Notes under the pieces: model-generated
Told to the model about the DNA's origin: nothing
The model's database searches: none
What the model saw: only the letters and a program-made list of their open reading frames with translations
Made by a program: the position numbers and the translations under genes
Part shown: positions 4,544 through 9,425 of the stretch, piece after piece
How positions within the stretch are numbered: position 1 is the stretch's first letter
Layout of the letters: every line of letters starts with the position of its first letter
Source of the DNA: an uncultured virus (IMG/VR IMGVR_UViG_3300020049_004016)
Taxonomy: Duplodnaviria > Heunggongvirae > Uroviricota > Caudoviricetes
Strand: one strand, 5' to 3'
IMG/VR virus record: IMGVR_UViG_3300020049_004016
DNA: 20,000 nt

Positions 4544-4790
4544 GAGCGTCCTCCATTGAGTTGATAACGCGCACATCACAACCGAGTGCACGTCTACGTT
4601 CATGATCGAGTTCTTGTAACGGTGTCGCGTGTTTACCTTCGTTCTTCAGTTCAACGAATATGATCACTCCTCCAGGTAGTGTTACGATACGATCAGGTAC
4701 TGACCTTCGTCCGCTTATGAACTTTTCAGCCATACCACCCAATTCTTTAACTCGCTTGACGAGTGCTTGCTCAATGTGTCGTTCAAGCAT
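4527..4790 (-). CDS. VRR-NUC domain nuclease
   Basis: LERHIE..., VPDRIV, FVELK, LQ motifs; typical position between polymerase and SNF2 helicase. Confidence 0.9.
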   Translation of the reverse strand: MLERHIEQALVKRVKELGGMAEKFISGRRSVPDRIVTLPGGVIIFVELKNEGKHATPLQELDHERRRALGCDVRVINSMEDARAFKK

Positions 4791-5586
4791 TATATCCAAC
4801 CTCTTTTAATAATTCGTTAGCCATACTGATGTACACTGGGTAGTCCACATCTTGCGGGAAGATGTCTGGTAGATCCATTAACGGTCTTGCGCCACCTGAC
4901 ATCGGCACTCGGTTTGAATTCTTCGCGTAGTGTATGCAGATCTCTTTATCAACGTCACGCGAGTAGTAAAAGCGTACGGCTTTACCGAGGTAACCACCTT
5001 GCCATGTTGCACCGCCAGTCACCTTACGCACTGTGACGAACTGAGTTATGTCGTTACATTCCATGATGGTTTGCTCGATAGGGGTGTTGCGCGCCACGCA
5101 ATACGCAACCGCTTTCTGTACGATCGAACAGTTCGGGTTCTTAGCAAGACCTGTGGATGCGAAGATACCTTTGCCTTTGATCTTACCGTCGGTTTTAACA
5201 GCGATGTAGTTATTAACATCTCTCGATACGAGTTTTGAATACTCGGTAGTTTCTAACTGATAACCTGTATCTAGCTCCCAATCAAAAGCGACTTCCTCAC
5301 AAGCATCTAAAAGGGATAAGGGAGCATAGCAAACAATACCATCAGTGTTTGCAGATACTATTTGTATACCTTTATCCTCCATGCGTTCTATTAAAGACAA
5401 TAGCGCAAGCTGTCCGGTCAAGGTTGTTTGTAATAATAATTCTGGCGCATAGAGAACACTGTATTTTGATCCTAGCTTGCCGAACGAGCCATTGGTCGAG
5501 AGTTTTTTTGAATCTGATTCTGTTTTGTATTTTAGTAGTTCAGCTTTGGCTTCGGACAATCTATTTTTAATTTCTATTTTAGTCAT
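4783..5586 (-). CDS. DNA polymerase (family-B-type), C-terminal half
   Basis: Motif B KLSTNGSFGKLG, TLTGQL, motif C SANTDG, DVNNY, KGKG. Confidence 0.88.
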   Translation of the reverse strand: MTKIEIKNRLSEAKAELLKYKTESDSKKLSTNGSFGKLGSKYSVLYAPELLLQTTLTGQLALLSLIERMEDKGIQIVSANTDGIVCYAPLSLLDACEEVAFDWELDTGYQLETTEYSKLVSRDVNNYIAVKTDGKIKGKGIFASTGLAKNPNCSIVQKAVAYCVARNTPIEQTIMECNDITQFVTVRKVTGGATWQGGYLGKAVRFYYSRDVDKEICIHYAKNSNRVPMSGGARPLMDLPDIFPQDVDYPVYISMANELLKEVGYNA

Positions 5587-5587
5587 T

Positions 5588-6319
5588 TTATTTATCTCTC
5601 TTTTTCCAAATATAATTCATATATGTTGGTTTATATCCATTACAAACCGAATATATATTTTGCCATTTATACGTAGGATTTTCTAAAATTATATCGTCGA
5701 CAGAATCCCATGTTCTTATAAAAACATTTTCTCTAGTGAATTGATCAAATATATATTTCCTTTTAGCTATTTTAACTTTGGCTACCATATCTTTTCTTTT
5801 GTCAAAGTCAGACCATGTTTGTATTGAACTGATTGACATTTTGTTTCTCCATTCTTCACCATAAATAAGGCCTCCAGAATGTCTATCTTTTGCAATATCA
5901 GACATTTTTTGTTTTTGTTCGTCTGACCATCGATTACCATAGTTAGGGTTTTTCTCTCCCAAATTTGTCCCTTTCAATTCGTCACAATAATCTTTAGCCC
6001 ATTTTCCCCCCGATAAAGCATCTTGACGAATGTTATATCCAAATCCCCTATCTTTTGTATTATAGTGATCCATCCAATATGCTTCTCTATCTAATAAAAT
6101 AGATTTATCATAAGTTTCAAATGTTTCTATAATTTCAAATTTAAAAACATCTGCTCCGTAAATTCTTCCGTCAGCGTGGAGATGTTTGTTAAAATCTTTA
6201 TGTCTATTTTCTTTTTTTAAATTACATTTATGGCTATACCATCGAGATGTGGTATCTTTACACGCCCCGATGTATTTCTTATTATTAACAGTGTTTGTGA
6301 TTGAATAAATAGCGATCAT
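5588..6319 (-). CDS. GIY-YIG homing endonuclease with NUMOD3/NUMOD1-like DNA-binding modules
   Basis: AIY-x10-YIG, RWYSH, REAYW, GYN; GEKNPNYG..SDEQKQKMS; C-terminal IYSVCNG..YIWK; AT-rich. Confidence 0.9.
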   Translation of the reverse strand: MIAIYSITNTVNNKKYIGACKDTTSRWYSHKCNLKKENRHKDFNKHLHADGRIYGADVFKFEIIETFETYDKSILLDREAYWMDHYNTKDRGFGYNIRQDALSGGKWAKDYCDELKGTNLGEKNPNYGNRWSDEQKQKMSDIAKDRHSGGLIYGEEWRNKMSISSIQTWSDFDKRKDMVAKVKIAKRKYIFDQFTRENVFIRTWDSVDDIILENPTYKWQNIYSVCNGYKPTYMNYIWKKRDK

Positions 6320-6348
6320 GATGTTCTCCTAGTTGGGATAATACCATG

Positions 6349-7437
6349 CTACATGTTTTTTAATTCGTTTTCAAGATTATTTATTTCTTTAGTTAACTCA
6401 GCGATCTTTTTCTTTGCAAAGTTTCTTTTTTGAACAATATCTTTATATATTTTTAAGAAAGGTTTACCCATAGATTTTGGTGCTAATTTCTGCTGTAAGA
6501 TGATGCTTGGATAGTAGCCCAAACAATCTTTCTCTTTTAGGAACCATCCTTCTTTAACATTTATATACTGCGACTTCTCACATGAGTGTAGACCACCAAT
6601 ACCCATCTGATACTTACGACCGCCAATTCTAATGTCTTCTTTCTTTAACCAATCTGGTAGCACTAGCGCACCGTTGATACCTAACTTAAACGGTTCTTTG
6701 ATAACACGTGCCAAGATGTTGTTCAATTGCTCGCTCTTGAACGATACGATCTCAGGGTCTTGATAATAGAACTTCGCGTCATCAGCAACGGTAGGTCGTG
6801 AGGGTTTCTTACCGGTAATCTTTTGCAGTTCGCTGGAGATGACCGTCTCAGCAATCTGCGCATCAGACTTAGAGCGCAAATCCATACCGTACTGCTCAGT
6901 CATCGACTCGCGTAGCGTGATCTGAGGGATGAGTGCTTGATAGAGTTCTTGTGTGGTCTGTAAGTCGTTCTCACAATAGTTTCTTAGCTCAACCCGTTGC
7001 TCAGGTGAGATGAGTGCAGACGGTTCGATAGGTAGGTCTTGCAGTTTCTTTGAGTGCAGCCTTCCACCGTAGATCTTCAAGGAAGACATACCAGGTGCTA
7101 CTTCGATAAGATCAATATGATCCCATTTTGGGCAGGGTAGATTGTTATCTTGGTAAGTCCGATACGAGGATCGGTTTGATCCGATGATCGAGTCGCATAG
7201 ACTTTTTATGTGTTTGTTGTTCCATCCACAGAGTGCTGCCACGATAATGGGTAAGTCGAAGTTATTCCCGTTGAAGCTGATCGTGGTGTTCTTACGCATG
7301 ATATTGGACAGAACTGCTAGATCTAGCGGATGGTCTTCGTACAACTCAAGGTGGATAACTTTACCAGTCTCTACGCATTTGGCCGCGAAGAGAAAGTAGT
7401 TAGTGTAGATCTCTGTATCGATGATTATCTTTTTCAT
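6349..7437 (-). CDS. DNA polymerase (family-B-type), N-terminal half (3'-5' exonuclease and motif A)
   Basis: ExoI DTE, ExoII FNGNNFD, ExoIII YCEND, GIGGLHS, motif A DCLGYYPS; likely start MKKIII at 7437. Confidence 0.88.
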   Translation of the reverse strand: MKKIIIDTEIYTNYFLFAAKCVETGKVIHLELYEDHPLDLAVLSNIMRKNTTISFNGNNFDLPIIVAALCGWNNKHIKSLCDSIIGSNRSSYRTYQDNNLPCPKWDHIDLIEVAPGMSSLKIYGGRLHSKKLQDLPIEPSALISPEQRVELRNYCENDLQTTQELYQALIPQITLRESMTEQYGMDLRSKSDAQIAETVISSELQKITGKKPSRPTVADDAKFYYQDPEIVSFKSEQLNNILARVIKEPFKLGINGALVLPDWLKKEDIRIGGRKYQMGIGGLHSCEKSQYINVKEGWFLKEKDCLGYYPSIILQQKLAPKSMGKPFLKIYKDIVQKRNFAKKKIAELTKEINNLENELKNM

Positions 7438-7463
7438 TTTATGTTTCCTTGATAGGGTAGCTA

Positions 7464-7961
7464 TCAATTAATTGGTGCTGACGGGTGGTATATCTTTTTA
7501 GCATCTAAATATGCTTGATATGCTTCTTCTTTGGTATCAAAATATCCTAAATGTATGTTTTTATAATTTGCTTTTATTCTAGCTCTCCATTTTTTATTTT
7601 TCTTATTTACTCCTGGATATCCTGATGTGTTTATACTTTTTAATGTTTGATTATGACAATTCTCCATGTGTGTGACAAGTCGTAAATTGCATAATCTATT
7701 GTCAGACCTATTTCTATTTATATGATCTATCCTTAAGTGTTCTGGTATATCTCCATTTGAAATTATCCAAGCCAACCTATGAGACTTATATGGTTTTCTA
7801 TCAACCACTATGTATGGATACCCATAATGATCTAAAGGACCAAAAATAACTGTATCTTTTGTAGCGTTAGACCCAACCGTAATTAATCTTTTAAAACTAC
7901 CAACTTCAGGATCATATTCAAACAACTCTAACAATCTTTCTTGCGAAGGATGTGGGTTCAT
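7464..7961 (-). CDS. HNH endonuclease with AP2-like C-terminal domain
   Basis: HRLAW, IDHINRNRSDNRLCNLR, NTSGYPGV, WRARI, HLGYFDT; AT-rich. Confidence 0.92.
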   Translation of the reverse strand: MNPHPSQERLLELFEYDPEVGSFKRLITVGSNATKDTVIFGPLDHYGYPYIVVDRKPYKSHRLAWIISNGDIPEHLRIDHINRNRSDNRLCNLRLVTHMENCHNQTLKSINTSGYPGVNKKNKKWRARIKANYKNIHLGYFDTKEEAYQAYLDAKKIYHPSAPIN

Positions 7962-7972
7962 TTCTTTATCTC

Positions 7973-8080
7973 ATAAAAAAAGCTACACTCTCAATTCGCG
8001 GTAGGAATGGCTTGAAATTATGCCACGCGGTTTGAAAATATAGCTTTGTTTAAATTTCAATTTAAGGTTCCTACACCTGA
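7973..8080 (-). ncRNA. structured leader RNA copy 1 (c4/CI-like attenuator)
   Basis: 16-bp closing stem followed by U tract, internal TGGC/GCCA hairpin, two segments complementary to upstream sites; paralog at 9438-9545. Confidence 0.7.
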
Positions 8081-8085
8081 AACTA

Positions 8086-8094
8086 ATTATAACA
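8086..8094 (-). promoter_or_regulatory. extended -10 promoter (TGtTATAAT) for leader RNA/HNH
   Basis: TG-n-TATAAT directly upstream of the RNA element. Confidence 0.6.
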
Positions 8095-8105
8095 CGGTAA
8101 TGAGA

Positions 8106-8127
8106 AAGCCCCAACTTAATGGGGCTT
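8106..8127 (-). terminator. terminator-like hairpin after the SSB gene
   Basis: AAGCCCCA-ttaagt-TGGGGCTT just downstream of the stop codon. Confidence 0.65.
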
Positions 8128-8134
8128 AATTTAT

Positions 8135-8659
8135 TTAGAATACGTCGTCTTCGTCTGAATCGAATGCGTCGAAATCGTTTAGACTGCCTGAAGAACCATC
8201 TCCAAAAGGTTGACCATCCTTGAAGAACTGAATGCCTAATAGAGTAGCATTTATACGCTTACCCCACGCGTTATCTTGACTCCAGATCTCGATACTCGCA
8301 TTGACATAACAACCTGAGTAAGGCTTACCATCATCTTCGGCCAGTGGAGACTTGTCTCTGTCGATAACCAGTGGACGTTTTTTAGAGCTGGCTTTTAAAC
8401 TGAAGTGATTAGCGTAACCATCATAGTCAACCAAATCACCGTCACGTAAGCACAACTTTTCAGGGCCAACTTTAGCACCCTTAAGATTGGTCTTGATCAG
8501 TTCTTTGATCTGAGCTTGGATTGATTCGATCTGATCCGCTTGCGTTTCTTTGTCAAGCAGGAAAGTACCTTCGAACCCAGTTTCTTCACCGCTGAATACA
8601 GCTTTCTTGAATAATGAAGGGAAAGACAGACGTACGTTTTTTAAGATTATTTTAGCCAT
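8135..8659 (-). CDS. DUF2815-family single-stranded DNA-binding protein
   Basis: NVRLSFPSLF, LRDGD, YSGCYVNAS, IQFFKDG.PFG, acidic C-terminal tail ending in F. Confidence 0.9.
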   Translation of the reverse strand: MAKIILKNVRLSFPSLFKKAVFSGEETGFEGTFLLDKETQADQIESIQAQIKELIKTNLKGAKVGPEKLCLRDGDLVDYDGYANHFSLKASSKKRPLVIDRDKSPLAEDDGKPYSGCYVNASIEIWSQDNAWGKRINATLLGIQFFKDGQPFGDGSSGSLNDFDAFDSDEDDVF

Positions 8660-8705: not shown

Positions 8706-8752
8706 CGTGTTAAGTATAACTTAACTTTTATTCGGATGTCAAATTTTATTTT
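8706..8752 (-). promoter_or_regulatory. sigma70 promoter with UP element and palindromic operator
   Basis: AAAATAAAATTTGACA-18 bp-TATACT; GTTAA-N7-TTAAC at 8709-8725. Confidence 0.75.
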
Positions 8753-9425
8753 CTAATCTTGCCCAACTAACCGACTGAGCATATTCTGTTACTTTTTGTT
8801 TTGCGAACACATATATCTCTTTATAGTGCATGTTTTCATTCATACCTTTTCGTATCGCTGTGGAAGCTATGTTCTCAGCGACTTGTAAAAATCCTATCTG
8901 CATAAGATCTAGTGTATCTCTAAAATTACCAGAAGAACTTTTACTTTGTTCCAACATATCTAAAGCTTTATATTCCATCTTTGTTAAATTAGCATAATAC
9001 ATTTTTGCATTCACACTAGATTGATCGGTTGCATACTCTACAAAATCTTGGATAGTATCTGTCGTTTCTTTTCTAACAGCTTTGCCTTGAAGTCTTGCCG
9101 CTTTCCAATCTAGATTTGAACGTGTTTTTAATAACTCAGACTCCATCATATTGAAAGCTTCAAGAAACTTCTCTTTCCAAACCATTGCTTTCTTACCAGT
9201 AAAACCCATAACTAACATTGAGAAACCATTTCTAGTTATTACGTATTCTTGATAAGTCCTACCTTTATCATCTTGATAATCAATTTGCTCAAAATTGAGC
9301 CGATTAAATTCACTACTAGATTCTAAATTTTCTATTGCTCTGATAACATTCTTGTGAGCTTTGCCAAAATACTCAGCGATTATCCTAGAAGTGGTTGTCA
9401 TTTCTTTAGTAACTAACTCATTCAT
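8739..9425 (-). CDS. rha: Rha-family phage regulatory protein
   Basis: TTSRIIAEYFGKAHKNVIRAIE, FNRLNF, ITRNGFSMLVMGFTGKKA..WK..F.EAFN.ME. Confidence 0.92.
   Translation of the reverse strand: MNELVTKEMTTTSRIIAEYFGKAHKNVIRAIENLESSSEFNRLNFEQIDYQDDKGRTYQEYVITRNGFSMLVMGFTGKKAMVWKEKFLEAFNMMESELLKTRSNLDWKAARLQGKAVRKETTDTIQDFVEYATDQSSVNAKMYYANLTKMEYKALDMLEQSKSSSGNFRDTLDLMQIGFLQVAENIASTAIRKGMNENMHYKEIYVFAKQKVTEYAQSVSWARLENKI

Follow-up and report, generated by a model that had tools for sequence, protein, structure and literature searches.

A 20,000-nucleotide (nt) stretch of DNA from the uncultured virus IMGVR_UViG_3300020049_004016 (Caudoviricetes), called the window here in its whole length, encodes on its minus strand a family B DNA polymerase (PolB, PHROG 1252) that is split at the tip of the fingers by an intact GIY-YIG endonuclease gene. 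The N-half (6349..7437, minus strand; 362 amino acids [aa]) comprises the 3'-5' exonuclease, motif A, the first fingers helix, and an added tail, while the C-half (4783..5586, minus strand; 267 aa) comprises an added head, motif B, motif C (NTDG), and the thumb. These match PHROG 1252 at E 4.9e-95 and 4.2e-88 over profile positions 53-397 and 388-654, respectively, and the break falls between motifs A and B, in the fingers region where an earlier note on this DNA had put it. The spacing that the note described also held, with 29 nt, including the Shine-Dalgarno sequence of the nuclease gene (AGGAG, 6326..6330, minus strand), between the N-half stop and the GIY-YIG start and 1 nt between the GIY-YIG stop and the C-half ATG. 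The exonuclease motifs and motifs A, B, and C expected of a family B enzyme are all present, and the fold was assessed through a fused relative, P0245, whose AlphaFold model matches an archaeal PolB (E 1.5e-17). Residues K28, N32, G36, N80, T81, D82, and G83 of the C-half are invariant across 59 C-halves, and the N-half retains 91-96% nucleotide identity to the unsplit locus L001 outside a swapped tract described below. Non-covalent reassembly of the halves without splicing is the best reading of the locus, and we consider it very likely that the two chains form an active enzyme. The fuller account developed below, of a two-chain PolB, a mobile armed cassette, homing at motif A, and autorepression, is probably the best explanation as a whole.

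No signal that would rejoin the halves was found. The earlier note had stated that there is no room for a group I intron core and that intein motifs are absent, and this was borne out: Rfam returned nothing credible within 4700-8200, a search of the window allowing up to 2 mismatches found none of the group I elements P, Q, and R, and a Pfam search found no Hint domain. The P, Q, R, and S elements at 1 mismatch were found in 6, 10, 9, and 12, respectively, of 13 intron-bearing relatives. The ends at the break are helices of 19-20 residues without intein termini, and the N-half stop codon varies among relatives (TAG, TGA, or TAA). A group I intron was rejected on the missing P/Q/R core and the lack of a credible Rfam match in the window, a split intein on the missing Hint domain and termini, and stop read-through on the absence of a recoding signal and the differing stop codons. 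The layout is that of two open reading frames (ORFs) around a free-standing nuclease, without an intron or intein. That a single chain is nonetheless regained, whether through RNA splicing, translational bypass, or protein trans-splicing, is suggested by the intron-borne genes among the close relatives of the nuclease, but group I elements have neither room nor trace here, split-intein parts are missing, the added ends are conserved as protein, and the C-half Met lies in a fixed register, so that we regard this route as very improbable. We give even less credence to the polymerase being a dead pseudogene; a second polymerase is possible in the rest of the genome, but the catalytic motifs are intact in both halves and the same split recurs across dozens of divergent clusters.

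Both halves carry extra heptads at the break. The tail (K344-M362; 6352..6408, minus strand), delimited by an alignment and column profile of 14 split N-halves, lengthens the first fingers helix, and the head (M1-Y20; 5527..5586, minus strand), delimited by the start register of stand-alone C-halves, lengthens the second. The finger span from motif A to motif B is 86 residues in the window (both halves summed) versus 50 in 128 of 153 nonredundant unsplit loci. The 59 stand-alone C-halves with a non-native head (the query included) were picked among the best 120 of 620 C-half protein matches; they span 50-89% identity, and 54 of them start 31-32 residues ahead of the motif B Asn. The heptad residues are I345-L348-I352-L355-L359-M362 in the tail and I6-L10-A13-L17-Y20 in the head. 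Head positions 6 and 10 are I, L, or V in all 59 C-halves, positions 13 and 17 are I, L, V, M, or F in 83% and 78%, and the tail columns equivalent to L348, I352, L355, and L359 are hydrophobic throughout the 14 split N-halves. The periodicity that the earlier note had seen at both ends is recovered in the tail by a single-sequence test (p 0.0006) and in the head by the alignment; taken singly, the head is not significant (p 0.48), which tells against a coiled coil. In P0245, a naturally single-chain protein, a short linker joins a tail and a head that are nearly those of the window, and the AlphaFold model of this protein (pLDDT about 90) folds as a helix (327-358), a 5-residue loop, and a second helix (364-395). 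This model of a fused protein supports an antiparallel geometry for the arms. We think it likely that tail and head pair with each other, and lean slightly toward the arms being required for activity.

The gene between the arms (5588..6319, minus strand) encodes a free-standing GIY-YIG endonuclease of 243 aa with an I-TevI-like catalytic domain, NUMOD3, and a C-terminal helical plus small alpha/beta domain (PF01541, PF07460). Residues Y5, Y16, G18, R26, E79, and N96 are invariant across 64 relatives, and the best Foldseek match is the I-TevI catalytic domain (E 5e-6); by sequence and Foldseek it has the intact domain and modular DNA-binding part of a GIY-YIG homing endonuclease. Between the window and the split locus L170 the nuclease differs at 41 synonymous and 17 non-synonymous codons, and synonymous changes likewise exceed non-synonymous ones in the tail and head. 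The cargo between the arms is known for 13 distinct loci, most C-half proteins lacking genomic context. Nine of these carry the GIY-YIG clade at the finger site (the window, L170, L003, L011, L015, L030, L067, L094, and L176), and four carry an HNH-AP2 gene flanked by the same kind of arms (L045, L219, L351, and L377).

Relative to L001, the closest unsplit relative, the window contains an exchanged tract of low GC content at third codon positions (GC3), at approximately 5195..6565 (minus strand), that runs from just ahead of motif A through the cassette to beyond motif C; in 60-nt windows, identity is 88-96% outside this tract and 50-86% inside it. Listed in the order N core, motif A to finger, tail, cargo, head, motifs B-C, and distal, GC3 is 50, 29, 30, 22, 24, 35, and 53 in the window, 66, 26, 20, 21, 14, 73, and 69 in L015, and 84, 95, 50, 41, 33, 90, and 78 in L045, values that are noisy for segments of ∼20 codons. 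The tails share the base composition of the element clearly in L015 and L045, visibly in the window, and weakly in AT-rich hosts. On a 119-row polymerase tree of the block after the head, split and unsplit states require 26 changes (with L046 relabeled as unsplit), the starred branches alone force at least 9 changes (with L046 counted as split), and split alleles often have near-identical unsplit sisters; with 115 columns, gain and loss are indistinguishable on this tree. The nine finger-site GIY-YIG genes make 3 changes on the nuclease tree, where starred branches force only 1, which does not establish a single origin. The GC3 steps at the edges, the scattered split alleles, and the HNH cargo between arms of the same kind indicate indirectly that tail, nuclease, and head travel between phages as one cassette; the trees, whose alignments have 115 and 245 columns and come from genes that recombine, are a weakness of this argument. 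The nuclease clade was not found in a genome-contig search. No cultured phage with the finger split was found when the best 40 of 266 head-region matches were checked, all 4 that were opened being single-chain, and a search with the HNH cargo at E 1e-30 returned nothing.

The predicted target of the nuclease in non-carriers is the motif A codons (D304-P310; 6508..6528, minus strand), which specify DCLGYYP in the window and DVASYYP in most relatives. A scan with the nuclease alignment returned 80 viral and 46 metagenome loci, mostly in or beside DNA polymerase genes, and the largest class of relatives lies within motif A (33 of 53 nonredundant members). The 13 motif-A loci that we inspected have an insertion that follows the Asp-Val codons (DV^ASYYP) and contains the nuclease, with group I P/Q/R/S elements in most, and the group I introns bearing nuclease relatives are located at the position equivalent to 6523/6522; Rfam matched one of ten such loci scanned (RF00028, E 8e-7, below the gathering score). 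Five intron-borne members share a starred clade of 32 with the window's nuclease. In free-standing carriers, the two codons directly after the intron insertion point are altered: the residue before YYP is non-Ser in 7/7 finger carriers and 2/2 adjacent carriers versus 11/151 non-carriers, and in 0/4 HNH carriers and 0/6 palm-site carriers. This count used the 322 of 414 loci with a usable motif A, clustered at 90%, after 9 of 160 non-carrier rows mis-anchored on a C-terminal motif had been dropped, and the Ser contrast gives p = 4e-8 even with those rows counted as non-Ser. The residue pairs of carriers at the recoded site differ among themselves (LG, QA, LA, RA, TG, QG, AG, and SR), and the foreign low-GC3 tract starts at motif A in L015 and not in HNH-bearing L045. 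P0249 and P0251 retain the Ser and would be predicted to lack this GIY-YIG clade. Together, the introns at this position, the recoded Ser codon, and a motif-A-like 10-mer by a candidate promoter (described below) suggest motif A targeting, self-immunity, and autorepression. On these sequence comparisons we judge that motif A is probably the target, and the recoding points to self-immunity of the carrier. The pattern resembles the intronless homing with cleavage at a distance known for Seg enzymes (PMC2988022), and cleavage here would be analogous.

Members of the nuclease clade also occur at other positions. A second split site lies in the palm just past DxNNY, where the spacers around GIY-YIG genes are very small or missing and helical arms are not evident (L002 3336-3995, L118, L126, L128, L130, L131, and L185; L002 also has a fused long finger), and because these palm-site members retain the Ser and lack the 10-mer, the clade appears to have more than one target. 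A third split site, just ahead of motif A, is found at L004 720-1429, with a close nuclease relative and long extra ends on both halves. In Flavobacterium phage Fpv1 (L008, KU599877.1; 3241-4186) and in L009, the annotation gives two polymerase genes on either side of a homing endonuclease; group I intron elements are present at motif A, so that an unannotated intron is probable. In L116 (just upstream of 3001) and L050, the polymerase is intact, its motif A is recoded, and a gene of the same clade follows immediately downstream. Other members lie between or just after primase-helicase and apparent family A polymerase genes in L132, L133, L135, L137, L142, L120, L121, and L181, the last of which retains the window's spacer motif.

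The 29-nt spacer contains a 10-nt motif (6336..6345, minus strand) that resembles the Tyr-Tyr-Pro codons of motif A and is a candidate operator. It directly adjoins a sigma70-like promoter candidate (6346..6374, minus strand) with 9/12 consensus matches, whose putative -35 element lies in tail codons and whose -10 element is the stop codon plus 3 nt; the number of such candidates in the region is at chance level. The 10-mer is present within one substitution in all nine finger loci and adjoins a sigma70-like promoter in the same register in six of them. A degenerate form, counted on either strand, lies at most 100 nt upstream of 30 of 53 nonredundant relatives versus 2 of 126 other ORFs, where shuffling gives an expectation of 2.0. 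The 10-mer also forms the 5' arm of a weak hairpin across the ribosome binding site (RBS) and start codon of the nuclease gene in 6/6 loci folded (z -0.9 to -3.2). A role as a general phage promoter was rejected, as the window has 1 copy versus 0.84 expected by chance. I-TevI binds an operator that resembles its homing site next to its own promoter, and RBS hairpins are a known expression control of I-TevI and mobE (PMC2988022). We somewhat favor the 10-mer being an operator of the nuclease. Ahead of the nuclease gene of L116, the mimic motif forms a perfect inverted repeat of 13 bp.

The coil may have arisen with the nuclease, or an old long finger may have been invaded later. The earlier note had expected the heptad segments in split forms only and had named their presence in unsplit homologs as an outcome that would overturn its reading. 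The alignment finds heptad-like extensions in 18 of 153 nonredundant unsplit loci, with fingers of 61-89 residues, and none in the other 135, which departs from the Aeh1 pattern of tails absent from every unsplit homolog. Examples are P0245/P0246, P0250/P0252, L002, and L057, and among cultured phages Loktanella phage pCB2051-A (74 residues) and Pseudomonas phage KP1 (64 residues). Because such extensions exist in unsplit homologs, the coil is better described as lengthening the native finger hairpin, and the arms could be older than the split; of the acquired antiparallel coiled coil proposed earlier, the geometry is upheld by the P0245 model and "acquired" is not. Along with these long fingers, a neutral to basic net charge of both arms (+1 and +3), where the tails of Aeh1 have opposite charges, and an engineered finger split of Pfu polymerase that functions without added arms (PMC3061061) weigh against a coil that came with the nuclease and holds the halves together. 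The long fingers and the Pfu split fit instead a two-chain enzyme whose heptads are an old long-finger variant invaded in the loop by nucleases, with dispensable arms and halves held by exonuclease-palm-thumb contacts, and whether seg43(25) caused or invaded the comparable gp43 split is likewise undecided in Edgell 2010 (PMC2988022). We nevertheless find this version unlikely. The a/d positions are kept across the 59 divergent heads, the arms have the low GC3 of the cargo, and the six long-finger fused forms are rejected as a single clade (p-AU 0.0002; long branches L004 and L007 were excluded after the tree was seen), each resembling a different split subgroup. Moreover, L342/L057 reads like the tail of HNH-split L351 up to the cargo start codon plus the head from its third codon, as a re-fusion would give, and P0245, P0246, and L002 combine window-type heads with a recoded motif A. 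On these sequence features, several long-finger fused forms look like re-fusions of split halves. The single-chain long-finger polymerases L232, L244, and L273, two of which are from Bradyrhizobium genomes, also have a recoded motif A (RG), lack a neighboring nuclease, and may be old scars.

A cassette of the proposed kind could also carry a nuclease that cuts elsewhere, for example at motif B or in the finger loop, with the 10-mer a mere RNA arm sequestering the RBS. The hairpin predicted in every locus folded, of a type known from I-TevI and mobE, could itself explain the conservation of the 10-mer at finger sites, and the palm-site members of the clade retain the Ser without having the 10-mer (0/6). 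Further reservations about motif A are that 11 non-carriers are also non-Ser before YYP, that the carriers are related to one another, and that the degenerate 10-mer pattern was picked after being seen. Arguing for motif A are the introns that sit exactly at the recoded codons, the several distinct substitutions among carriers, and the reverse-oriented 10-mers that precede intron-borne relatives, and because of these reversed copies we favor protein binding of the 10-mer. A cut elsewhere therefore seems to us the less probable choice, though a somewhat stronger contender than an old, dispensable long finger.

We propose that the phage makes PolB as two proteins that assemble non-covalently, with the split in the loop joining two fingers helices, and that the ∼19-20 extra heptad residues per half would lengthen these helices, turning the native antiparallel hairpin into a longer coiled coil. 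The GIY-YIG enzyme would recognize the motif A codons ∼200 bp upstream of its own gene and cut polymerase genes that lack the cassette, and repair would then copy in both the cassette and the recoded motif A, making the carrier immune in a form of intronless homing. The nuclease may limit its own expression in the manner of I-TevI, through a target-mimic operator by an internal promoter and a weak RBS hairpin, and its loss may re-fuse the halves into a long-finger single chain.

The principle of such a conserved, apparently mobile genes-in-pieces cassette is already known. Gene 43 of Aeromonas phage 25 is split at the finger tip into 43A and 43B around the GIY-YIG gene seg43(25), and the two parts are reported to co-purify and to be active (Petrov et al. 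2006, 2010, as cited in PMC2988022, PMC3061061, and PMC2677866). This and related bicistronic T4-type gp43 resemble the window in that a free-standing GIY-YIG gene separates the halves of a family B polymerase broken at the tip of the fingers. The window differs in its PolB group (PHROG 1252, from small phages) and its nuclease clade, and its family provides many loci in which arms travel with the nuclease, as well as HNH genes as a second cargo, probable re-fusions, and a target prediction, a comparison that draws on gp43 as described in citing papers. Aeh1 nrdA-a/mobE/nrdA-b is likewise an essential gene split by a free-standing endonuclease, with AT-rich tails on both halves that were proposed to be derived from the element and are essential (Crona et al. 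2011, PMC3045599). That is one instance, with an HNH nuclease and oppositely charged tails, whereas here the arms are hydrophobic heptads that prolong native helices, and the mobile family spans several lineages. I-TevI and the T4 Seg enzymes share the GIY-YIG catalytic fold, and an operator beside a promoter and an RBS hairpin occur there, as is predicted here, the free-standing members showing distant cleavage and co-conversion (PMC2988022); autorepression is described for intron-encoded enzymes such as I-TevI, whereas here members of one clade are found in introns at the predicted target as well as free-standing, inside that gene or next to it. Fractured genes with split inteins have the same order of N-half, free-standing nuclease, and C-half and bring control elements along (Dassa et al. 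2009, PMC2677866), whereas no intein parts are present here. Introns have been reported in crAss-like PolB genes (PMC7886860), and this split is not described in the accessible parts of PMC7544198, PMC10448857, and PMC10580990. A literature search, mostly without subscription papers, turned up no description of this split for the present PolB family. New here are a series of forms across the family, cargo that can be exchanged, probable re-fusions, and predictions of target and operator.

The neighboring genes form an ordinary phage replication module (SSB, DUF2800 exonuclease, VRR-NUC, SNF2 helicase, and primase). A second free-standing nuclease gene (HNH_3 + AP2; 7464-7961, minus strand) lies between the SSB and polymerase genes of the window; it is missing at the equivalent spot in L001 and L003, and an unrelated 193-aa ORF occupies that spot in L002. 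An AT-rich Rha-domain gene (8739-9425, minus strand) lies upstream of SSB, in a region that the aligned stretch of L001 skips. Elsewhere, the thymidylate synthase gene of L005 (3385-5366) is in two parts, with a distant GIY-YIG gene between them and spacers that are very short.

The review cited above (PMC2988022) leaves two questions open, namely by what means the halves of split phage enzymes come together and whether the nuclease was the cause of the split. The loci described here offer a natural series in near-identical backgrounds, comprising short unsplit polymerases, polymerases split with GIY-YIG or with HNH cargo, long fused forms, and an intron at the target, which makes assembly, target, and direction of change testable with small proteins. 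The split accounts for the annotation of these PolB genes as fragments, and our reading predicts that the GIY-YIG nuclease acts specifically on codons of motif A in a widespread phage PolB. More tentatively, and with rather more doubt than confidence, we suggest that the pair of heptad arms could be a portable "zipper," a third way, besides introns and inteins, for homing endonucleases to reside inside an essential gene. Such a zipper would spread by homing, swap GIY-YIG and HNH cargo, carry the nuclease promoter in its codons, and leave long-finger scars on cargo loss, and the nuclease lineage would alternate with group I intron life at the target. If this is true, the two lifestyles of the nuclease lineage would be a natural snapshot of collaborative homing.

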